Part shown: one piece after another, positions 1,461-64,000 of the stretch
Layout of the letters: each line of letters opens with the position of its first letter
Position numbering within the stretch: the first letter of the stretch is position 1
IMG/VR virus record: IMGVR_UViG_2767802123_000001
Coordinates: 31,727 to 95,726 of that record
DNA: 64,000 bases
Source: a virus
Lineage: Duplodnaviria; Caudoviricetes
Strand: one strand, 5' to 3'
Notes under the pieces: generated by a model
What the model saw: only the letters and a program-made list of their open reading frames with translations
Database searches by the model: none
What the model was told of the DNA's origin: nothing
Program-made: the position numbers and the translations under genes

Positions 1461-3251
1461 TCAGAGCTGGTGCCCGAGAGTCTGGTCCGCGCTGCCCGAC
1501 CCGTTGACCGCGAGCGTTGCCCGGTACAGGCGGGACTCGTGGCCGACCCTGGCGACCAGGTGCGCCTCCTCCGCCCACAGGGCGGTGTGGTCGTTCTCCG
1601 CGTTCAGCGCGCTGTCGCGGATCACACCGAGGTCGAGCTGGAGGCCGTTGCCGTGCAGGAAGGTGCCGGCGGCGTACATCATGAAGTCGACGCTGGTCGG
1701 CCAGGCCGTCATGTTGGTGTCCACGCGGCCGAACTGGCCGGAGCCGCGCACCTGCCAGTCGGAGACGAACTGCGGGCGCACCGACCTGTCCGTGAACCAC
1801 GCGGTGATCTGCGCGTCCGACACGCTCTCGCGCTCGACCTTCGTCCGCCAGGCGAGGTCGGCCCGGATGACCGCGAGCGTCCAGCGCGGCAGGACGACCT
1901 CCAGTACCGCGTCCTCGCGCATGGCGAACTTCGCGCGGTAGTCGATCGCTGCCAGCTCCACGCCGTTGAGCAGCGTCTGGGCGGCAGGCTTGTTCGCCGC
2001 GCCAAGAGCGATGGCCGAGGTGGACCGGGCGACCATGAGGGAGATCAGCCGGGCGTTGATGACGTGCGCGTAGGCCGCCCGCAGCAGCCGGATGAAGTTC
2101 TGCGTCGCCTCCGGGTACGCGTCGTCGGTGAGGTTACCGGCGGTGAGGCTGACGCCGTACGCCTCCAGCCGCGTCTCGTCGAACGTCGGGCACGGCACGC
2201 GCAAGGTCGGCTTGTTCACCGAGCCGGTGACGGTGGCGATGTCGTCGGCCTCAGTCCACAGCCACGGGTCGCTCGCGTTGGAGAACGGGAAGGCGAACCC
2301 GCCGAAGCCCGAAGCCGGGTTGGAGCCCGCGTTCTGGAAGAACACGTCACCGATGGACGGGGACACCGGGTAACGGATGCCGCCCCGGGAGACACCGACG
2401 GTCGGCAGGTCGATGAGGCCGACCGGAGTGTCCGCGATGTTGAAGAAGTCGTAGGTGACCTCCGACGGGGCGCACCACCCACCGCCGGCCAGCAGGGCGT
2501 CGGCCTGGCCGCGCTGCTGCGTCATCGAGTGCCACAGCTCCTCTACCGTGGAGGCAGAGGTGCGGTCGTCCACCGTGTGCTCGAACTGGTTGCGCAGCGA
2601 CGCGACCAGGTGGCGCGGGGCGCCCCGGTCGCCGTACTGCGTGGTCGGCACGGCCTTCGCCTTGGCGCGGAACGCCTCGCTCAGGGCCTCCAGCGTCGGC
2701 AGGGACTGCCCGGCACCCACGCCGGGGATGTCCACGCTCGCGGTGACGGCCATGGTCTGCGCATTCGGTGCCTTGGCCTGCGGGGCACGCTCGCGTACCT
2801 GCGACAGGGAGGCCACCCGGCGCTGCACGGCCTCGGGGGCCTGGTCGCCGAAGAGGATGGAGGCCACACCCTTGGCCGTGGCCTCAGTCAGTGCCGCGAG
2901 GTCGACACGGCCGCCGGCGGTGACGGGGGCGGCGCCCTCGCCTCCGTCACCGCCTTCGCCGCCCTCACCGACGTGCACGGACTGACGCAGCAGCGCCATG
3001 CGCCGGGTCGCCTCCTGCTGTGCGGTGGCGGCCTCTTCCTCCGCGCGGACCGCGCGCACGCGCAGCTCCGCGCGGATGCGGTCCAGGTCACGCGTGAGAC
3101 GTTCGCTGTAGCTGATGTGTTCGGGGAGGATCTGCTGAAGTCCGGCGACGCGGTCGAACTCCGCGACCGCGTTCGTCTCCAGCTCGCGCAGCTCCGACTC
3201 TCCCACGAGTGAGAGGTCGTCGGGCGCGGTGAACAGTTCGGGTTCCGGCAC
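1461..3251 (-). CDS. Major capsid (hexamer-type) protein
   Basis: GGAGG RBS before GTG 3251; coiled-coil N-terminus, then LLAGGGWCAPSEVTYDF and LDLGVIRDSALNAEND motifs. Confidence 0.8.
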   Translation of the reverse strand: MPEPELFTAPDDLSLVGESELRELETNAVAEFDRVAGLQQILPEHISYSERLTRDLDRIRAELRVRAVRAEEEAATAQQEATRRMALLRQSVHVGEGGEGGDGGEGAAPVTAGGRVDLAALTEATAKGVASILFGDQAPEAVQRRVASLSQVRERAPQAKAPNAQTMAVTASVDIPGVGAGQSLPTLEALSEAFRAKAKAVPTTQYGDRGAPRHLVASLRNQFEHTVDDRTSASTVEELWHSMTQQRGQADALLAGGGWCAPSEVTYDFFNIADTPVGLIDLPTVGVSRGGIRYPVSPSIGDVFFQNAGSNPASGFGGFAFPFSNASDPWLWTEADDIATVTGSVNKPTLRVPCPTFDETRLEAYGVSLTAGNLTDDAYPEATQNFIRLLRAAYAHVINARLISLMVARSTSAIALGAANKPAAQTLLNGVELAAIDYRAKFAMREDAVLEVVLPRWTLAVIRADLAWRTKVERESVSDAQITAWFTDRSVRPQFVSDWQVRGSGQFGRVDTNMTAWPTSVDFMMYAAGTFLHGNGLQLDLGVIRDSALNAENDHTALWAEEAHLVARVGHESRLYRATLAVNGSGSADQTLGHQL

Positions 3252-3291
3252 GTCAACCTCCGGGAGAGCGGCCGAGATCAAGTCGGCGCGC

Positions 3292-3318
3292 ACGGTACAT
3301 ACAAACGGCCGAATCGCC
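3292..3318 (-). promoter_or_regulatory. Late-type promoter GCGATTC-N13-TACCGT (one of 7 copies)
   Basis: Same motif and 13-nt spacing upstream of six other genes. Confidence 0.6.
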
Positions 3319-3359
3319 AAAAGTCACAAAGACTCTGACGATTCGGCCGTTGTCGCTGC

Positions 3360-3422
3360 TCAGCCGCCGATCGGGGGCGGCGGAGGCGGCGGGGGCGGGG
3401 CCGGTCGGTTACAGCCGCACAT
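3360..3422 (-). CDS. 20-aa peptide MCGCNRPAPPPPPPPPPIGG
   Basis: GAGGAG RBS overlapping the protease stop; lies between protease and capsid genes. Confidence 0.45.
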   Translation of the reverse strand: MCGCNRPAPPPPPPPPPIGG

Positions 3423-3427
3423 ACGGA

Positions 3428-6400
3428 TCACTCCTCTCGGTGGACTTGGCGGGACAGGGCGGCGAGGACGCGGCGGTATGCCCACTGGTCCAACTCGTCC
3501 TCGGTCAGACCCTCGGAGAGCTGCGGGATACCCGCTGCGACGAGGGCGAGCTGCTGGCCGGACGTCAGGTGCGTCTTCAGCTTCGGGACCGGGAAGCCGG
3601 GGATGTTCACGGCGAGCAGGCCGACCAGGCGCAGCGACCCGCCGATGCGGCGCCAGTCGCCGGACACCTGCCCGGCCGCGCGCAGCTCGTGGATGCGCGA
3701 CTCGGGCGTGCCGGGCCGGATGGAGCCCGCGACCCAGATGCCGTGAGCGTCGTTGCCGACGGCGACGTCCGCCACGGCGGCGCCGGTGTTGTCGTAGTGG
3801 TCGGCTGCCGCGCGGTAGCCGTAGGACAGGGGCGCATGTCCGGTGCCGACGGTGATCTGTCCGACGCCTACCGATGAGCCGTCCTCCGTCCAGACGTTGC
3901 CCGTCATGAAGTACGGGTGTGCCTCCTCGTGCGGTGGGGTGACGCACACACCCTCCTGCCCGATGTGGCAGGTGCCCCACAACGCGGCGTGCCCGTACAC
4001 CCGGCCCTCCGGCGTGACCGTGATCCCGGTGGGCACCGACAGGCCCGGGTTGGAGAACCAGCTGGCCGGCGGGCGCACCGGCGCCTCCACCGTCCGAGCC
4101 GGAGCCGTACGGACCTTCGTCTCACGCACCGCGCCGATCGGTTCGCCGCCGGCGACGACGGCCCCGGCCTCGTCCAGCAGGGCGATGTACGCCTCGGCGA
4201 AAGCGGGGATGTCCACCAGGGTCGCCGCGCGGATACGGCCCTTGTTGAACACGACTTTCTCCGGCGACGCGAACAGCATGTCGAACGGGGAGCCTTCACC
4301 GTCCGCGTCCGGGTCGGCAGGCCACACCAGTTCCATGTCGGCGTCTTTGATGGAGTCGACATCCACCGACACACCGCGCAGGAACTGACCCTTGATCTTG
4401 CCGTGGACCGTGCGGCCGTCCTCGGTGGACAGGTCCAGAACGCCCTCACCCATGATGAGGCCGCCGTCTTCCCGCCACACCCGGTCGATGCGGCCGACGT
4501 TCACCGCTACGGTGTGCGGCTCCCCGCCGTGGCTGTCTTCCTTGTTCCAGCGCAGCGGGAGCGGCAGGTCGGCCCAGGTGAGCGCCTCCGGCTTGAACTC
4601 CCGGCCGTCGCCGGTCTCGATACCCTCCACGGTCAGCGGGCCACGCCACGGCGCGGTGTCGCCGGAGCCCATCTCGCTGACCGGCGGCCCCGCCACCTCC
4701 TCGGCGTCGGCCGCCGCGCCGTGCGCCAGGGTCTCGGGGCCGTGCTCGCCCCGCAGCGTCTGCGCACCCCCGACCGCCTTCTCCCCGACCTCCACGCACT
4801 CGCCGGAAGCCTTGTCCAGCTCCATGCCGGGCGGGCACTGCTTCTCCTCGGAGGCGGACTGTTTGTTCTCCTTCAACCGCTTGTCCTTCGGCGTACCGGG
4901 GTTCGGCTCACCCTTACTCAGAACCTCGGTCGCTTCGGTCGCTGCTTCGGTCGTCATGGACTGATCTCCTTCCGCCGCGTCCTGTGCGGCCGGTTGGGTG
5001 TCGGCACTCGCCGTGGTTGCCGGGCTCCGCACTTCCTGCCAGACGGCGATGAGGAAACCCCGGCACGCGTTGCCGTAGCGGGCGCCGGTGCAGTCCCGGT
5101 AACCCATGACCGGGTACTCCGCCATGGCTGCGTCCAGGGTGGTGAACGTGCGGCCGTCGATCGCTTTGCAGGGGTCGCACGTACGGCGGTCCAGAATCTC
5201 GGAGGCGGTGTACGAGGATGCAGGCGGCGCGGCCTCCATCACCGCGTGACGTCCGGCGTTCTGCGCGGCCGTCATCGCCTGTCCGACGGCGGCCCGCACT
5301 GAGGTGTCGTCCACCGTGGCCAGCTCCCGGTCGACCTCAGCAGCCACCTGCTCCGACGGCCGGCTGGAGCGCAGCAACCCGGACAGCTTCCGCTTGGCGG
5401 CCGTCAGTAGCGCCCCCGACATGAGGTCGCTGGACAACTCCGCGACGGAAGACAGCAGCCGCCGTCCGGTGAGCGCGGCCGTGACCGCGTCCTCGTCGCC
5501 GTCGGGCAGCGACCAGTCCGGGACGGCGATGCCCTGCCGTTCGGCCTCACGCTGGCACGCCCGGCCCGCTTTGACCGCGTACTCCTCCATGAGATTCAGC
5601 AGAGTGGACGTCGCAGCCCGGCTGTCCAGGGTCAGCTCAGGCACCGACTCCAGGCGGTCGTCGGCGAGGTCCCGGGTGATCTGCTCGCGCACGTCCAGGC
5701 GCCACGCGGCCGTGACCGACTTGAGGGCCTTCAGCGCCCCGGCTGTCGCGGACTCCCACTCCGCGTGCACCCCGGCGAAGTCGACGCGCGAGGCCACCTC
5801 CAGCTCGGTCGGCTCCCGGCGCAGCGGTCCGGCGGCGGCCGTCACCGCGTCGCCGGTCAGGGGTATGTCGTGGTCCTCGTCGCCGAAGGACAGCCGAATG
5901 CGGTCGAACGTCACCGTGCCCAGCCGCTGTTCCAGTTCCTTCAGCAGGGCGGGGTCGTCGCTGTACGCGGCGCAGATGTGCGCAGCCCAGGGGCTGTGCT
6001 GCGGGGGCATCTCGGGACGCCCGTGCGTGGACTCCAGAGCTTCCGTGACGCAGGCCCGGACCCGCAGCAGGCCGTCCGGTGGAACGTGCTCGCCGGGTTC
6101 GGCGTCGCCCACGTTCCAGACCCAGCAGGGGTAGTCTCCACCTCCGTTCCAGTGCGCGGCGCCGAACGCCTTGGCCCGCACGGGCCCGAGCCCGTACAGC
6201 TCCGCCAGCGGGCGCAGGATCCCCTCCAGCTCGTCGCGCTGCCCCTCGGTCCACTCGGAGCTGTCGTCACCAAGGAAGAACAGCGTGCAGTGCAGCTCCT
6301 CGGCCGGCTCGCCGCCGGGTATTGCGAGGCGTTCGGCATCCTCGGCCGTCGGCATGAGGGCGACCATGCAGCCCTGCGTGTGCGAGCCGTCGGCGGCGGC

Positions 6401-6442
6401 CGTGAGCGCCGGCGGGTGCTGGTGGTCAGTGCGCGGGGGCAT
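3428..6442 (-). CDS. 2H-phosphoesterase + MuF-like + capsid maturation protease fusion
   Basis: N-terminal LHCTLFFLG and AAHICAAY (2H-like pair); central ILDRRTCDPC...NACRG (MuF); C-terminal GIETGDGR protease-like region; between portal and capsid. Confidence 0.7.
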   Translation of the reverse strand: MPPRTDHQHPPALTAAADGSHTQGCMVALMPTAEDAERLAIPGGEPAEELHCTLFFLGDDSSEWTEGQRDELEGILRPLAELYGLGPVRAKAFGAAHWNGGGDYPCWVWNVGDAEPGEHVPPDGLLRVRACVTEALESTHGRPEMPPQHSPWAAHICAAYSDDPALLKELEQRLGTVTFDRIRLSFGDEDHDIPLTGDAVTAAAGPLRREPTELEVASRVDFAGVHAEWESATAGALKALKSVTAAWRLDVREQITRDLADDRLESVPELTLDSRAATSTLLNLMEEYAVKAGRACQREAERQGIAVPDWSLPDGDEDAVTAALTGRRLLSSVAELSSDLMSGALLTAAKRKLSGLLRSSRPSEQVAAEVDRELATVDDTSVRAAVGQAMTAAQNAGRHAVMEAAPPASSYTASEILDRRTCDPCKAIDGRTFTTLDAAMAEYPVMGYRDCTGARYGNACRGFLIAVWQEVRSPATTASADTQPAAQDAAEGDQSMTTEAATEATEVLSKGEPNPGTPKDKRLKENKQSASEEKQCPPGMELDKASGECVEVGEKAVGGAQTLRGEHGPETLAHGAAADAEEVAGPPVSEMGSGDTAPWRGPLTVEGIETGDGREFKPEALTWADLPLPLRWNKEDSHGGEPHTVAVNVGRIDRVWREDGGLIMGEGVLDLSTEDGRTVHGKIKGQFLRGVSVDVDSIKDADMELVWPADPDADGEGSPFDMLFASPEKVVFNKGRIRAATLVDIPAFAEAYIALLDEAGAVVAGGEPIGAVRETKVRTAPARTVEAPVRPPASWFSNPGLSVPTGITVTPEGRVYGHAALWGTCHIGQEGVCVTPPHEEAHPYFMTGNVWTEDGSSVGVGQITVGTGHAPLSYGYRAAADHYDNTGAAVADVAVGNDAHGIWVAGSIRPGTPESRIHELRAAGQVSGDWRRIGGSLRLVGLLAVNIPGFPVPKLKTHLTSGQQLALVAAGIPQLSEGLTEDELDQWAYRRVLAALSRQVHREE

Positions 6443-8276: not shown

Positions 8277-8526
8277 GGCATACCTCCCCGGTTCGGATCG
8301 AGGGGCATGGTAGCTGCGATCATCCAAATGGCCGTTTTCACGGCATACCGGCTGCGCGCACGTGAGCCCCGCCGGCCACCACACCGGCGGGGCTCACGCA
8401 TCCCTGTGCACCCTGACCCGAGGAAGCCGGATGAACGCGGGGCACCATACGACGGAAGGTCAATTTCACCTACTCCCGCACGAAAACCCCGGAGCGGAGA
8501 TGCTCCGGGGCCAGTGGGGCGAACGG

Positions 8527-8739
8527 TCAGAGCCTTCCGGCCTTGAGCAGCGTGCGGACGGCCTGCCGGAACTCGCCCTTCAGCTCATCGGCTGCCAGCG
8601 CGTCGCGCAGAAACTCGCCGGCCGTGGGGTGGGTCGCCGCCCGACGGGCCGCCCAGCGGAGGTCCGGGGTGACTCCGTGATCGCCCCGGGCGACCTCGGC
8701 GAGAATTTCCTGGGCGTCTGCGATGTGGCTGGAGTTCAT
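8527..8739 (-). CDS. Small hypothetical protein in its own promoter-terminator cassette
   Basis: Preceded by operator/promoter and GACCAAGGAA leader; hairpin at about 8483-8512. Confidence 0.7.
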   Translation of the reverse strand: MNSSHIADAQEILAEVARGDHGVTPDLRWAARRAATHPTAGEFLRDALAADELKGEFRQAVRTLLKAGRL

Positions 8740-8787
8740 GGTCGGTTCCTTCTTTCCTTGGTCTGTCGGTCCGGCACTCCGTCCCGA

Positions 8788-8803
8788 TGAATTAATTAAA
8801 CCA
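8788..8803. promoter_or_regulatory. 16-bp operator-like palindrome overlapping a -10 box
   Basis: TGAATTAATTAAACCA; about 20 related copies in the window. Confidence 0.7.
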
Positions 8804-8837
8804 CACTCTGTGCGGCCGGGGCAACCCCGAGCACGAC

Positions 8838-8872
8838 GAAGCCCCGGAGCCGTACGCGCTCCGGGGCTTCGC
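8838..8872. terminator. Terminator-like hairpin of the AAGCCCCGG...CCGGGGCTT family
   Basis: Inverted repeat after the ATP-grasp gene; many similar copies. Confidence 0.65.
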
Positions 8873-8888
8873 GGGGTGTTGCAGTGCG

Positions 8889-9896
8889 CTACACGTCGGC
8901 GGACCCTCGCTGCCAGGGCGCCCCCGAGGACGCGCGGTGACCACCGCCGGGGGTGTAGACGTGGGTGGCCAGTGCCGTCTGGACGAGGTGGTCAGCGATG
9001 GCCCGTGAGATGACCATCCCGGTAGACGTTTCCACGAAGCCGAACTGGCCCGCCGGGTTCGCCTCCAGGAACCACCACGTGCCGCCCTGGTCGACGGCGA
9101 AGTCCAGGGCGGCGTACTCCAGCCCCAGCGTCTGCATGAGCTTCTGGACTTTCTGCGTCAGCGGCAGACTGGCACTCACAGCCTCGAAGCCCAGGTCGTT
9201 CTCCGGGGCCGCCCTCCAGTCGAACGCCCCGTCGGCGGTGACCTTGCACGGGAACATCCGGTCGCCGATCACCGTCAGCCGGATGTCGTGTGTCTTGTCC
9301 ACAGGCCGCTGGAGGTAACACATGGTCTGCCGCACGTGGTCGGCGCCGGCCAGGATCTCCTCGGGGGACACCAGCCGGGCCTGGACGAACCGGTCCGGGT
9401 GCGCGGTGAGGGTCTTGCACACCACCCTTCCGCCCTGTTCCGTGGCGAACGCGGCGGCCCGGTCGGGATCGTTGGTGAACAGTGCTGGAGGAGTCCGCAG
9501 GCCGAGAGACGAGGCGAGATGCAGTTGTCGTGGGCCGGGCCGGGCAGCCTGCGCCCGGAGCGGGTGGTTCACCCACAACGTCCCGTCAAGGCCGTACAGG
9601 AAGTCCTCCAGGATGGCTCGGGACTCCCGCTGTCCCCACCCACCGGGCAGGCCAGGGTGCCACCAGAAGACGGAGACAACCGACTGCGAGAGCGTGGAGC
9701 GGTGGTCGTCTTCGATGGTGAACCGTAACGGCTCCCCGTCCGAGACGCCGGTCATCCGCAACGCCCCCGGGCGCGCGAGGTCGGCGGGGTCGATGCGGTG
9801 GATGGCGACCCCACGCGCCTGAATCTGCCGTATCACGAGGTCAGCCCCGAGATCGTCAGGTGCGGTGACGACAAGCACGGTGGGTGGGAGCGGCAT
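8889..9896 (-). CDS. ATP-grasp RiPP maturase (graspetide ligase)
   Basis: WVNHP, VVCKTL, DIRLTVIG, FDWR, YAALDF and WWFLEANPAGQFGF motifs; TGATG overlap with the precursor. Confidence 0.85.
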   Translation of the reverse strand: MPLPPTVLVVTAPDDLGADLVIRQIQARGVAIHRIDPADLARPGALRMTGVSDGEPLRFTIEDDHRSTLSQSVVSVFWWHPGLPGGWGQRESRAILEDFLYGLDGTLWVNHPLRAQAARPGPRQLHLASSLGLRTPPALFTNDPDRAAAFATEQGGRVVCKTLTAHPDRFVQARLVSPEEILAGADHVRQTMCYLQRPVDKTHDIRLTVIGDRMFPCKVTADGAFDWRAAPENDLGFEAVSASLPLTQKVQKLMQTLGLEYAALDFAVDQGGTWWFLEANPAGQFGFVETSTGMVISRAIADHLVQTALATHVYTPGGGHRASSGAPWQRGSADV

Positions 9897-10168
9897 CAGT
9901 CGTCGTCCTTCTTGTGCTCTTTGCTGTTGTGGGTCATGGTCGGCCCGAACAGGGCGTGCGGAACGTGGGCGAAGTCGTCGTCCTTCTTGAACCCCTTGTG
10001 GTTGTGGGTCATCGTCGTGGCCTGGACGTCGGCGACGTCGACCACGGCGTCCCCGTCCGAGGTCACGTTGAGCTGGCGGAGGCGGTCGAACGTGAACTCC
10101 GGGGTCCGGTCGACGGGCGGGGTCGGGACCTCGACGAGGAGTGCAAAGGGGGTACACGTGGCGGTCAC
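9896..10168 (-). CDS. Graspetide precursor peptide with two core repeats
   Basis: Leader with PFAL and FDRLRQLNV; cores TMTHNHKGFKKDDD and TMTHNSKEHKKDDD. Confidence 0.8.
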   Translation of the reverse strand: MTATCTPFALLVEVPTPPVDRTPEFTFDRLRQLNVTSDGDAVVDVADVQATTMTHNHKGFKKDDDFAHVPHALFGPTMTHNSKEHKKDDD

Positions 10169-10371
10169 GGTGCCATCCTTCGGTTGTGGGGCCGTGCTCT
10201 GACGGCCCGTTCCTGTGTTCCTGGTTCCTTGCTCTTGATCCGCGCCCTGGGAGACCAGCACCCGTAGTCGCCGATCATGGATTAATTAAACCTTAGTTGT
10301 GTGACGCACGCAACCCTCAGACACGACAAAACCCCGGAGCGTGAAGGCTCCGGGGTTCAACCGCGCGGCAT

Positions 10372-11049
10372 TCAGGACAGAGTGAGCGGGTGGCCCGGCG
10401 CGTAGACGGCCTCACCGACACCGATCACCGTGTTGCCGGTGACGTAGACGCTGCGCACCGTCAGCACCCCCCGGTCGTTGTCCAGGCCGAACTCCGCACG
10501 CTCTTCGTCCGTGGTGGTGCGGACGTCCGCTGTCTTGGACGCCACGCGGACCTCGTTGCCGGAACGGTCCTGGTAGAGAGCCTGCCAGGTGGGATCGCAG
10601 GCCCGGGGTTCGTCGATCTCGGGGACGTACTCGGCAACGTCCACGCGCACCCACGACTGCGATGCCTGGACGACGTCGCCTCCTCGGGCCACGGTGCGCA
10701 CGCGGTTCACGCACTCGCCCTCCCCGAGGAGTTCGGCGACCCAGTCGGGCGCCTGCACCCGCTCGCTGCGCTTGTGGTTGATCGTCTCGCCGGCCTGCGT
10801 GATGCCCTGAATGCGCTTCTCGCCCACGATGAGCCGGCGCCGGTCAGCGACGAACACCCCACGCCCCTGCTGGGAGGTGACGTACCCCTCGGCCTTCAGC
10901 AGCGCGATGCCACGATAGACCGCATTGTCGCTGATCATGAACTGCTTCATCAGTGCTGCGGTGGGCGGCAGTTGGTCTCCCGGCTTCAGAGTTCCCAGGT
11001 CAATGCGTGCCCTCAGGTACGAGACCATGCGCGCGACGGTGCCAGCCAT
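10372..11049 (-). CDS. GntR/HutC-family regulator (KorSA/TraR-like)
   Basis: LKPGDQLP...LKAEGYVTSQQGRGVFV wHTH plus UTRA-like C-terminus; GAGGAG RBS. Confidence 0.85.
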   Translation of the reverse strand: MAGTVARMVSYLRARIDLGTLKPGDQLPPTAALMKQFMISDNAVYRGIALLKAEGYVTSQQGRGVFVADRRRLIVGEKRIQGITQAGETINHKRSERVQAPDWVAELLGEGECVNRVRTVARGGDVVQASQSWVRVDVAEYVPEIDEPRACDPTWQALYQDRSGNEVRVASKTADVRTTTDEERAEFGLDNDRGVLTVRSVYVTGNTVIGVGEAVYAPGHPLTLS

Positions 11050-11183
11050 CAGTTTCTCCTCGGGTCTTCCTATCGGATGTGGTTGACGGTACATCAGCTG
11101 TGCCTTAGCTTCCTAGGAGGGTTCCTGTAGGAAGTCCCCCAGGGCATTCCCCTGAATTCGATAAATCACACACGGAGGACCGC

Positions 11184-11573
11184 ATGGCCGCCACCAGCAC
11201 TCTGTCCGACGTCAAGACGACCGCCCCGACTGCCCGTCGCGCGGCAGAGATCCACGCAGTGTGGATGGCCGACCCAGAGATGCCGGACGTGGCCGGGAGC
11301 ATGGCTGACGCCGTGCGTGTGCTGGCCGTACGGGCCGCCGTGCACGAGCGGACAGGCGACGCGCGGGCCGCCGCCCTGCCCGCTCCGGCGGCCGTGGAGC
11401 TGTCGGCGAGGGTGCTGGAGCGTCAGTTCCCCGAGCTGCGCTGGATCGCGGAGCGCACCGGGCACGTCCTGGTGCACGGGGCCGACGACGCCCGCTGGGC
11501 CCCCGGCGACTACACGCAGCAGGTGTACGTCGGTGCCTTCGGCGCGGTCGGCGGCCGACACTGGTCTGTGTGA
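11184..11573 (+). CDS. Hypothetical protein divergent from the GntR gene
   Basis: GGAGG RBS; hairpin at about 11586-11631. Confidence 0.65.
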   Translation: MAATSTLSDVKTTAPTARRAAEIHAVWMADPEMPDVAGSMADAVRVLAVRAAVHERTGDARAAALPAPAAVELSARVLERQFPELRWIAERTGHVLVHGADDARWAPGDYTQQVYVGAFGAVGGRHWSV

Positions 11574-17455: not shown

Positions 17456-18370
17456 TCAGTGCGCCCGAACGACTTGACCCACAGCCCACGCGAGAGCAGC
17501 GCGCAGGGCCTCGGTCTCCTTCAGGCGGGGTCGCAGGCTCGGGTCCGGATCGGTCAGCTCTTCGAACTCGATGGGGTTCAAGCGCCGCCGGGTACCTTCG
17601 TCCAGCTCCCGGTCGTCGTGCGGTCCTGTCACCAGGGCCAGACTGTGTGACGGCTTGAACTCGAAGGGGTTTCGGTGAAGGTGCCTCGTGACGATCGTGC
17701 TCTCAGTGAGCAGGAGCTTCAACTTCCCGGTGTTGATGCGCCCAATCTCTTCAGCCACGACGAAGCGGACGCCGCGCAGGTCCCCAGCCAGGGGCCAATT
17801 GACCGAGTACAGCGCGTGGCTCCCGAGGGCATCGCACAGCGGCCGAAGGAACGTCGACTTCCCGGACGACCCCGGGCCGTGCAGGACGGCGGCCGAATCG
17901 GCAGGTTCTCCGGTTACGGCCCTCGCGACGAAGGACCCGAGCGGGGAGGACGCGCCGGACGGCAGGCTTGCGAGCACTTGGTCCCAGGCAGGGCTCTGAG
18001 CGTCGGGGTTGTAGTCGACGGCTGCCACCTTGGTCAGTCGCAAGGTGGGGTCGTGCGGGTGCAGCGTTCCGGTGAAGAGGTCCACCACACCGTTCTGCAC
18101 GTTGAGCAGACCCGGGTGGCTGTCCAGGGTCTGCACGTCAATCTCCAGAACAACCTGGAGCTGACGGAGGATCGTACGGACGTGCCTGTCAGAGAGTCGG
18201 CGGTGCCCGTGCGCTTCCCGCCACTGGTTCACCCTGTCGGCCGCCTCGTCCGCGCCGAACTGCGTCACCCAGACCTTGCCGTCCCAGTACAGCCATCCGA
18301 GGCCCGGGTTCCAGGCGAGTTCGCTTTCAAGGTCGTCCGCCATCTCACGGAGGTTGGGGTCAAGGTCCAT
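17456..18370 (-). CDS. Short D5/P4-family primase-helicase-like ATPase
   Basis: WLYWDGKVW, LNVQNGVVDL, Walker A GPGSSGKST. Confidence 0.75.
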   Translation of the reverse strand: MDLDPNLREMADDLESELAWNPGLGWLYWDGKVWVTQFGADEAADRVNQWREAHGHRRLSDRHVRTILRQLQVVLEIDVQTLDSHPGLLNVQNGVVDLFTGTLHPHDPTLRLTKVAAVDYNPDAQSPAWDQVLASLPSGASSPLGSFVARAVTGEPADSAAVLHGPGSSGKSTFLRPLCDALGSHALYSVNWPLAGDLRGVRFVVAEEIGRINTGKLKLLLTESTIVTRHLHRNPFEFKPSHSLALVTGPHDDRELDEGTRRRLNPIEFEELTDPDPSLRPRLKETEALRAALAWAVGQVVRAH

Positions 18371-21537: not shown

Positions 21538-22644
<1,107 letters not shown>

Positions 22645-31622: not shown

Positions 31623-31868
31623 TCAGCCCTCCGCCGGTGCCGGGTGCTGCTCGATGACGGCTCGAATCGCCTTCACCGACGAGGCCCTGACGAGCCGGAG
31701 AATCTCCGCGTAGTCGCCGGCCTGCTCCTCGATGGCCTTGATGCGCTTGCCGAGGGTGCTGGCCCGGGGCCCGGCGGGCAGGGTCAGCCACTCCTCGCGC
31801 AGCGTCTCGGCCTTGGCGGCGAGCTGCGCCCGGCGCAGATCCAGCTCGGCTATCGTTCGTGCGTTCAC
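31623..31868 (-). CDS. Hypothetical coiled-coil protein
   Basis: GGAGG RBS, GTGA overlap. Confidence 0.55.
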   Translation of the reverse strand: MNARTIAELDLRRAQLAAKAETLREEWLTLPAGPRASTLGKRIKAIEEQAGDYAEILRLVRASSVKAIRAVIEQHPAPAEG

Positions 31869-63812: not shown

Positions 63813-64000
63813 ATGGACCGCATCTGGCGGGACGTCCGCAGCATCGACGAACTCGGCGCGGCGATGGCAGGGTGGCTGGAGGGACGCATCGCCTCACAGC
63901 CAGGCTGCTCGGTCGGCCCCGACGAGGAGACCGCGCACCTGGTGCCGGTGCTCGCCCGGCTTAACCGACGCGGCTGGGTCACCACCTGCTCGCAGCCCGG
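63813..64000 (+). CDS. DUF6919-like protein, partial
   Basis: WLEGRIASQPG..DEET..LNRRGWVTTCSQP. Confidence 0.55.
   Translation, partial: MDRIWRDVRSIDELGAAMAGWLEGRIASQPGCSVGPDEETAHLVPVLARLNRRGWVTTCSQP

Follow-up and report, generated by a model that had tools for sequence, protein, structure and literature searches.

A probable two-gene graspetide cassette on the genome of a Streptomyces phage or phage-plasmid

Graspetides, a well-studied class of ribosomal natural products, have been described on bacterial chromosomes and, of late, on conjugative elements. In plesiocin (group 2) and thuringinin (group 3) a repeated core lies behind a single leader, and one ligase is expected to cyclise all of the copies. 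Prunipeptin was reportedly described by Unno and Kodani in 2021 as bicyclic, with one ester and one isopeptide bond. It represents graspetide group 11, with 3,324 clusters and PF14404 precursors; DUF397/DUF5753 regulators are found near 15-19% of those clusters (Carter et al. 2026, PMC13097080; the graspetide similarity network published there uses an alignment score threshold of 70). Repeated cores have been described by Makarova et al. (2022, PMC8939145), and the cores of the graspimiditides put Thr donors first and Asp acceptors last, in stem-loop topologies (10.1101/2023.06.21.545981). Bacteriocins are carried by prophages (Dragos et al., preprint 10.1101/2020.10.01.322628), and an integrative and conjugative element (ICE) of Porphyromonas gingivalis carries graspetides (10.64898/2026.08.04.741601). 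This report concerns a pair of small genes, encoding a putative graspetide precursor and an ATP-grasp ligase, in a stretch of 64,000 nucleotides (the window; positions 31,727 to 95,726 of the viral record IMGVR_UViG_2767802123_000001). In our judgement the pair is probably a working graspetide cassette of two genes that diverged from the actinobacterial Strep_pep/prunipeptin type (group 11) and that travels as autonomous "moron" cargo on a Streptomyces phage or phage-plasmid, 95.6 kb in size and assembling as a circle. Its chemistry is of a known kind; the core sequence and the phage home are undescribed in the papers that were searched. The same literature search found ribosomally made peptides with post-translational modifications (RiPPs) on prophages and graspetides on conjugative elements, and found no graspetide on a tailed phage.

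The precursor and its ligase

An earlier note on this DNA, made from the letters alone, had described a 90-residue precursor with a PFAL/FDRLRQLNV leader and two cores, coupled through TGATG to an ATP-grasp ligase, and had taken the pair for a graspetide system. Translation gives exactly such a peptide (for coordinates see Table 1): a leader, TPFALLVEVPTPPVDRTPEFTFDRLRQLNVTSDGDAVVDVADVQAT, with the motifs TPFALL (PFALL) and FTFDRLRQLNV (FDRLRQLNV); core 1, TMTHNHKGFKKDDD; the linker FAHVPHALFGP; and core 2, TMTHNSKEHKKDDD, whose DDD is the C-terminus of the peptide. AAGGA (10180-10176) stands 7 nt 5' of the GTG start, which is an ATG in relatives, and in six of these that ATG, or a stop just ahead of it, pins the start to the same position; an alternative in-frame GTG at 10261, giving a longer open reading frame (ORF), has no ribosome-binding site. 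The Pfam family PF14404 (Strep_pep) matches residues 7-50 of the precursor (E 1.5e-3) and the NCBIfam model TIGR04186 matches under its cut-off (9e-3); the two matches span residues 6-52 and involve the leader only. The P-h-h-x(1,2)-h motif of graspetide leaders (Makarova et al. 2022, PMC8939145) is matched by PFALL. On its motifs and profile matches, the leader is homologous to Strep_pep leaders. In sum, a small ORF adjoins the ligase gene and combines a graspetide leader motif with cores that hold Thr and Lys donors and Asp acceptors. The ligase ATG (9896) shares TGATG with the precursor stop, and the KKD codons of core 2, AAG AAG GAC, supply the Shine-Dalgarno sequence GAAGGA 9 nt ahead of it; read from this arrangement, precursor and ligase are translationally coupled. 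Third-position G+C is 0.93 in the precursor gene and 0.87 in the ligase gene, in line with real genes of DNA with about 70% G+C.

The best NCBIfam match of the ligase, over its full length, is TIGR04187, "ATP-grasp ribosomal peptide maturase" (3.8e-73), and it also matches MvdC (6e-37) and MvdD (4e-27). In a sequence search of the PDB the only real matches are graspetide ligases: PruB of S. coelicolor (9bou; 1.5e-38, ~34% identity), and next MdnB (7e-32), AMdnB, MdnC, CdnC and PsnB. An AlphaFold (AF2) model built on 28 homologs is confident except in the last 23 residues (predicted local distance difference test score, pLDDT, 88.6; predicted template modelling score, pTM, 0.84). Foldseek places PruB first against this model (9.5e-29), with AMdnB and MdnC also among the top matches, and the matches listed to rank 29 are all graspetide macrocyclases. 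Eight residues (K161, Q196, R206, D226, R228, D265, E278 and N280) are invariant in the 28-homolog alignment, as would be expected of residues that bind nucleotide and Mg in an active ATP-grasp enzyme. The profile comparison that the earlier note had proposed thus comes out strong for the ligase and weak for the leader, and its identification holds: the ligase falls in the macrocyclase clade, with maturases of the MvdC/MvdD/PruB/PsnB type and with its ATP/Mg residues intact, and it is paired with a two-core precursor. The last 23 residues of the ligase (313-335; window 8889-8960) are predicted to be disordered (pLDDT <50). A GGH-x-ASS...PWQR pattern in this tail recurs in phage-clade sequences, and the tail may serve in docking.

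Relatives of the precursor were sought in a collection of 5.8 billion proteins, which yielded 24, of 82-91 aa and none of them named. PF14404 matches 20 of the 24 at E<0.01 (best 3.9e-5) and no other family matches. Both cores are kept in 23, the first being degenerate in one relative (P0121/L021), and the positions T-x-T-H-N-x-x-G-x-K-K-D-D-D are invariant or nearly so in both cores. More distant pairs have a single core, DSMTINSSGSKKDDD in L004 and PTMTDSSGNGGTGPKKDDD in L019. Since the L004 core aligns with core 2 together with the LFG motif that precedes core 2 (the L019 core aligns only partly), core 1 looks like the later addition. The ratio of nonsynonymous to synonymous substitution rates (dN/dS), estimated pairwise by the Nei-Gojobori method for seven family members, a small sample of pairs that are non-independent, stands at 0.21 in the ligase, 0.40 in the leader, 0.32 in core 1, 0.81 in the linker and 0.36 in core 2. 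A functional two-core substrate would predict just such a difference between cores and linker; by these values purifying selection acts on the ligase and on both cores throughout a small family of ~24-30 members.

The placement of the ligase relies on a quick maximum-likelihood tree, in which the clade is set by identity of at least 62% and not by context, and which serves as an indication only. A branch of length 0.72 (Shimodaira-Hasegawa-like approximate likelihood-ratio test, SH-aLRT, 100) sets apart the 30 proteins at least 62% identical to the ligase; they are sister to P0032, and together these join the Strep_pep-linked ligases (host C20, host C21 and P0034; SH-aLRT 95). Homologs of the ligase are present in 288 of 400 Streptomyces species genomes. 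Beyond the window's own genome, just one of the 400 has a ligase of the clade (64% identity), and one more has an intermediate (43%). The carrier genome has three chromosomal TIGR04187 ligases that score above the cut-off (359-408 bits), and the phage ligase is ~38% identical to host chromosomal ligases. Two of these host loci are canonical, with Strep_pep precursors that end in ...GTT(T/A)STAGSKTHFDD (106-126 bits). The third has a Ser/Asp-rich precursor with the end ...SDSSSDSDHD.

A tblastn search with the ligase against 50,697 phage records returned two distant matches only (26-28% identity), in Leptospira phage LE1 and in a faecal phage. LE1 (KF114876.1; our L035) is an isolated plasmid-prophage, and its "RimK-like ATP-grasp" gene (2365-3439; 26% identical to the ligase) has its start overlapped by a 37-aa ORF that is rich in Thr, Lys, Asp and Glu; the two resemble a graspetide pair, unannotated and on an unrelated phage. 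A different phage-borne pair lies at 5699-6960 of L018, an IMG/VR contig of 139,799 bp: its ligase is 35% identical, and its precursor has an LFAL leader and a core that ends in ...GTGTATGQVRPDHDTD.

Carrier genome, neighbors and control signals

The carrier contig (C29) is 95,726 bp long, the end of the window at 64000 is the end of the contig, and the first and last 99 bp of the contig are identical. By these ends it assembles apart from the chromosome, as a 95,627-bp genome that is either circular or terminally redundant. Genes of the window specify a major head protein, a MuF/protease fusion, a portal and a large terminase, as well as a primase-polymerase of 1,509 aa, a lysin and a tyrosine recombinase. 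The carrier is only distantly related to isolated phages: its portal is at most 37% identical to theirs, and megablast with 4 kb around the pair found no match in the 50,697 phage records. Four IMG/VR viral contigs of 92.6-95.7 kb (94,961, 95,700 and 92,595 bp among them) bear ligases that are 78-93% identical together with two-core precursors. Pairs of the same type are also found in a 92,743-bp S. africanus contig and in a GenBank "plasmid" that contains the region twice. More distant copies adjoin CHAP or LysM lysins, Lsr2, a tail-spike-like beta-helix protein or a small terminase.

The earlier note had placed the pair between portal and terminase, in a unit with a promoter and a terminator of its own and without an adjacent methyltransferase, peptidase or transporter. 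That description stands, with promoter and terminator as candidates. Portal and terminase are separated by an island of 11 kb that holds about a dozen small units, in which the neighbors of the pair are a gene for a GntR/UTRA regulator and a 70-aa ORF, and the pair is flanked by a promoter-like site and terminator-like hairpins. The regulator gene is also upstream of the pair in L003 and L016 and is absent from that position in L014 and L017; as it is upstream in only some relatives, it was dropped as a candidate part of the system. In Streptomyces, regulators of its class (HutC-type) respond to small sugars or metabolites. A structural role in the head, which proximity to the portal might suggest, was likewise rejected: the pair adjoins lysis genes in L001 and has other settings elsewhere. 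Three genes were noted in passing: a D5_N/DUF5906 primase-helicase-like gene (17456-18370, minus strand) within the island; a three-domain lysin (transglycosylase, NlpC/P60, LysM; 21538-22587, minus strand) just past the terminase; and the 1,004-aa MuF/protease fusion (3428-6442, minus strand), of which residues 11-196 match PHROG families labelled RNA ligase (3.5e-24).

The motif GGTTTAATTAAT, containing TTTAAT, is at 10292-10281, ahead of the precursor gene. With at most two mismatches it occurs 17 times in the window against 0.06 expected. Fourteen oriented copies (window 8791-63063), each with a GGGTTG box ~17 nt 5' of the motif, point at gene starts and align as GGGTTG(T/C)-N-(T/C)AT-G(G/A)TTTAATTAA-(G/T)TCATC, after which come a common leader and a start codon; the copy ahead of the precursor has AGG where the others have TGG. 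TTGnnn, a 17-nt spacer and TG(G/A)TTTAAT would together make a sigma-70-like promoter with an extended -10 element. A simple sigma-70 scan of 8300-11300 called no promoter, missing the site because its rule requires A at position 2 of the -10 element, which TTTAAT lacks; the "terminators" that it called are weak and other than the strong hairpins. The palindrome TTAATTAA holds TG(G/A)TTTAAT and is followed by TCATC and the common leader GACCAAGGAAAGAGGAAC; it could also be an operator. Most copies of the promoter-like site come after a GC-rich hairpin. About 22 full copies of the motif are distributed over both arms of the contig, one of them (8802-8791) ahead of the 70-aa ORF and the portal. 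Standing before the portal operon and ~22 units, the motif is no marker of "early" genes, and the co-regulation with early phage genes that the earlier note had inferred does not follow from it. L014, L016 and L017 share the promoter site, and the upstream DNA is unrelated in L003, L001, L021 and L022; on this distribution the promoter is part of the phage backbone and not of the cassette.

Just ahead of the precursor ribosome-binding site, the 5' leader holds a stem-loop, GGGCCG-N8-CGGCCC (10208-10189, minus strand), whose stem is retained, with differing loops, in L014, L016, L017 and L001; a role in mRNA stability or translation control is possible. RNA folding gives the hairpin that follows the ligase gene -39 kcal/mol (z -3.66) and the hairpin that precedes the promoter -30.9 kcal/mol (z -5.2); in each case none of 200 shuffles was as good. 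By its position, the latter hairpin would shield the pair from upstream transcription. The neighbors of the pair differ between relatives (L001, L014 and L017), and this variation, the promoter-like motif and the flanking hairpins would fit a moron, an autonomous accessory transcription unit.

Table 1. Coordinates of the precursor-ligase pair, its candidate signals and related features (window positions unless otherwise indicated)
Feature	Position	Strand	Basis and remarks
Graspetide precursor gene (putative)	9896-10168	minus	Translation; GTG at 10168 to TGA at 9898-9896; 90 codons (90 aa) plus stop
Precursor layout	Leader 1-51, core 1 52-65, linker 66-76, core 2 77-90 (residues)		Translation
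ATP-grasp graspetide maturase gene (putative)	8889-9896	minus	335 aa; start overlaps precursor stop
Promoter-like site	10281-10316	minus	GGGTTG/TTGCGT box 10316-10308, 17-nt spacer, TTTAAT 10290-10285
5' leader, ~100 nt	10169-10280	minus	Sequence
Terminator-like hairpin, 14-bp stem	8837-8871	minus	18 nt past ligase stop; next promoter copy (8802-8791) follows
Terminator-like hairpin	10329-10358	minus	Between GntR stop (10372) and cassette promoter
GntR/UTRA (HutC-type) regulator	10372-11094	minus	PF00392 1.1e-13, PF07702 3.1e-5; directly upstream of pair
Portal	8384-6426	minus	Borders the 11-kb island
Large terminase	21426-19393	minus	Borders the 11-kb island
Host graspetide loci (carrier genome, G000)	C20:65455-66585, C21:185998-187112, C30:16699-17625		TIGR04187

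What the pair may make and do

In the mechanism that we propose, the ligase would dock onto the precursor leader and would spend ATP to turn the side-chain carboxylates of each core's terminal Asp-Asp-Asp into acyl phosphates and so activate them; rings would then be closed by Thr hydroxyls, as esters, and possibly by a Lys amine, as an isopeptide. Two to three rings might form per core, for up to six water losses per 90-mer. Expression would be from a host-type promoter, and trimming and release, if any, would fall to host enzymes or to lysis. The product would be a hairpin peptide, compact and resistant to proteases, and would most likely inhibit a protease, as the characterised graspetides do; inhibition of a protease or of a defence is a reasonable guess from the class.

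A number of observations weigh against the reading of the pair as a functional, phage-borne graspetide cassette of group-11 type. The ligase scores 246 bits with TIGR04187, against a curated cut-off of 350, and the precursor scores 19 bits with PF14404, against a gathering cut-off of 25. The ligase has no Pfam match, including to PF21068 (MvdD pre-ATP-grasp), a family that does mark relatives of the ligase at 30-47% identity. The K-K-D-D-D spacing is unlike the canonical K-T-H-F-D-D of the host loci, and because of that difference a Lys-Asp lactam may not form; the cross-links themselves, like their number and kind, are inferred. Promoter and terminators are assigned at the level of pattern, and neither flanking hairpin has a clear U-tract. 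No target, exporter or leader peptidase is encoded near the pair, and PADLOC found nothing in the pair and its eight neighbors. The relatives in L004, G042 and G308 (the last two being the nearest matches among the 400 species genomes) are in contexts that are not clearly phage.

Two explanations dispense with a graspetide function on the phage. That the enzyme is a ligase of the RimK or glutathione-synthetase type with another substrate, the small ORF not being that substrate, is barely credible, even though database labels speak for it: homologs are named "hypothetical" or "RimK-type", and the sole PHROGs match is to a "ribosomal protein S6 glutaminyl transferase" family (3e-13), a label that is misleading. 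With the RimK model the ligase scores only 37 bits (2e-9; cut-off 143), and with LysX 22 bits, against 246 for the RiPP maturase model; RimK and GshB are absent from its PDB sequence matches, and in the fold search RimK and LysX appear from rank 33. Neither the best family match nor the best structural matches are of RimK, GshB or LysX type, so that the grouping named in the earlier note as fatal to its proposal is not what is found. The small ORF, moreover, is never missing, runs into the ligase start, carries a Strep_pep-like leader and shows purifying selection. It is very improbable, too, that the pair is decaying passenger DNA from a Streptomyces chromosome, functionless on the phage. The degenerate first core of P0121/L021 and the single core of L004 might be taken as signs of decay, but both genes are intact in all 24-30 family members with dN/dS well below 1, the catalytic residues are invariant, and a ligase only 38% identical to the host copies implies no recent capture from the host.

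All readings of the biological role are held with less confidence than the molecular reading. Lysogenic conversion is a possible but doubtful one: the pair would be expressed from a prophage or phage-plasmid, its peptide would aid the host, perhaps as an inhibitor of extracellular or developmental proteases or of the enzymes of competitors, and the phage would merely spread the pair. A self-contained unit with its own promoter and flanking hairpins is consistent with this, as are the tyrosine recombinase and the separate circular assembly, which fit a temperate or plasmid-like life style; chromosomal relatives adjoin DUF5753/DUF397 regulator pairs, as in group 11, and a bacterium with three graspetide loci of its own evidently uses the chemistry itself. 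There is, however, no export route, and the promoter motif is common to many phage genes of which expression in a lysogen is unlikely. Counter-defence or host takeover, the reading of the earlier note, is the less likely of the two: the cross-linked peptide would stay in the infected cell and block a host protease or a protease-dependent defence during lytic growth. In its favor, all functionally characterised graspetides are protease inhibitors (2026 preprint 10.64898/2026.08.04.741601), the clade is found chiefly on phages and prophage-like DNA, the promoter looks like a sigma-70 site of host type and could fire early, and no exporter or peptidase adjoins the pair. But non-microviridin graspetide clusters often consist of biosynthetic genes only (10.1101/2023.06.21.545981), and since exporters are commonly absent from them, the missing exporter is uninformative and does not imply that the product is intracellular; promoters of this type also precede the portal operon and ~22 other units; a promoter-to-terminator unit is the classic layout of morons that are expressed by prophages; and PADLOC matched no known defence or anti-defence family. 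A more specific version, in which a phage-specialised graspetide branch makes a multi-ring peptide that inhibits a host protease or a protease-dependent anti-phage system in infected or lysogenised Streptomyces, is a longer shot still. If true, this would be the first RiPP shown to be a phage counter-defence or host-takeover factor, and the duplicated core would make it a bivalent inhibitor.

Returning to the graspetide cassette itself, what is new is an intact minimal pair, apparently under selection, with the core T-x-T-H-N-x-x-G-x-K-K-D-D-D twice, on complete 92-96 kb genomes of a Streptomyces phage family; related pairs are also found in prophage-like DNA. Standard annotation leaves both genes "hypothetical", so that such cargo is overlooked. 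If the product is a protease inhibitor, proteolysis would be a contested step between Streptomyces and its phages, and the pair would be a two-gene, readily expressed source of a new bicyclic or tricyclic scaffold.

Comparison with described graspetides

The pair resembles other RiPPs of mobile elements (the prophage bacteriocins and the graspetides of the P. gingivalis ICE) as a RiPP pathway carried as accessory cargo; those are of other RiPP classes, or are grasp-with-SPASM clusters with secretion systems on conjugative elements. With plesiocin and thuringinin it shares several copies of one core after a single leader; in contrast, their ligase branches, core motifs, taxa (myxobacteria, Bacillus) and chromosomal or conjugative-element contexts are all different. 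The graspimiditides of group 13 (fuscimiditide, amycolimiditide and albusimiditide) share the actinobacterial ligase branch of the pair, and their leader is related to its own. They require an adjacent O-methyltransferase (TIGR04188), whereas none is linked to the phage pair: the window has no TIGR04188 PIMT-type methyltransferase, and the best match in the genome, on contig C8, is under the cut-off.

The closest likeness is to PruA/PruB of Streptomyces (group 11). There, as here, two genes encode a precursor and then an ATP-grasp ligase; the leader is of Strep_pep type with P-F-A-L and Y/F-D-x-x-x-Q-L-N-V motifs; and the core is at the C-terminus and ends in Asp, with Thr and Lys donors ahead. 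PruB (9bou) is the nearest solved structure to the phage ligase, by sequence and by fold, and DUF5753/DUF397 regulators stand beside some relatives of the phage pair, as they do in group 11. The differences are that the phage core, T-x-T-H-N-x-x-G-x-K-K-D-D-D, replaces the canonical G-T-T-x-S-T-A-G-S-K-T-H-F-D-D of the host loci, has three terminal Asp instead of two and occurs twice; that the ligase is on a long separate branch; and that the pair is carried on phage genomes. Neither gene product reaches the curated cut-off that was applied for group 11: the ligase has 246 bits where TIGR04187 asks for 350, and the precursor has 19 bits where the PF14404 gathering score is 25. With both thresholds missed and a core motif that differs, the pair is not a certified member of the group; from its genes, leader and ligase, it would nevertheless work like a group-11 graspetide.

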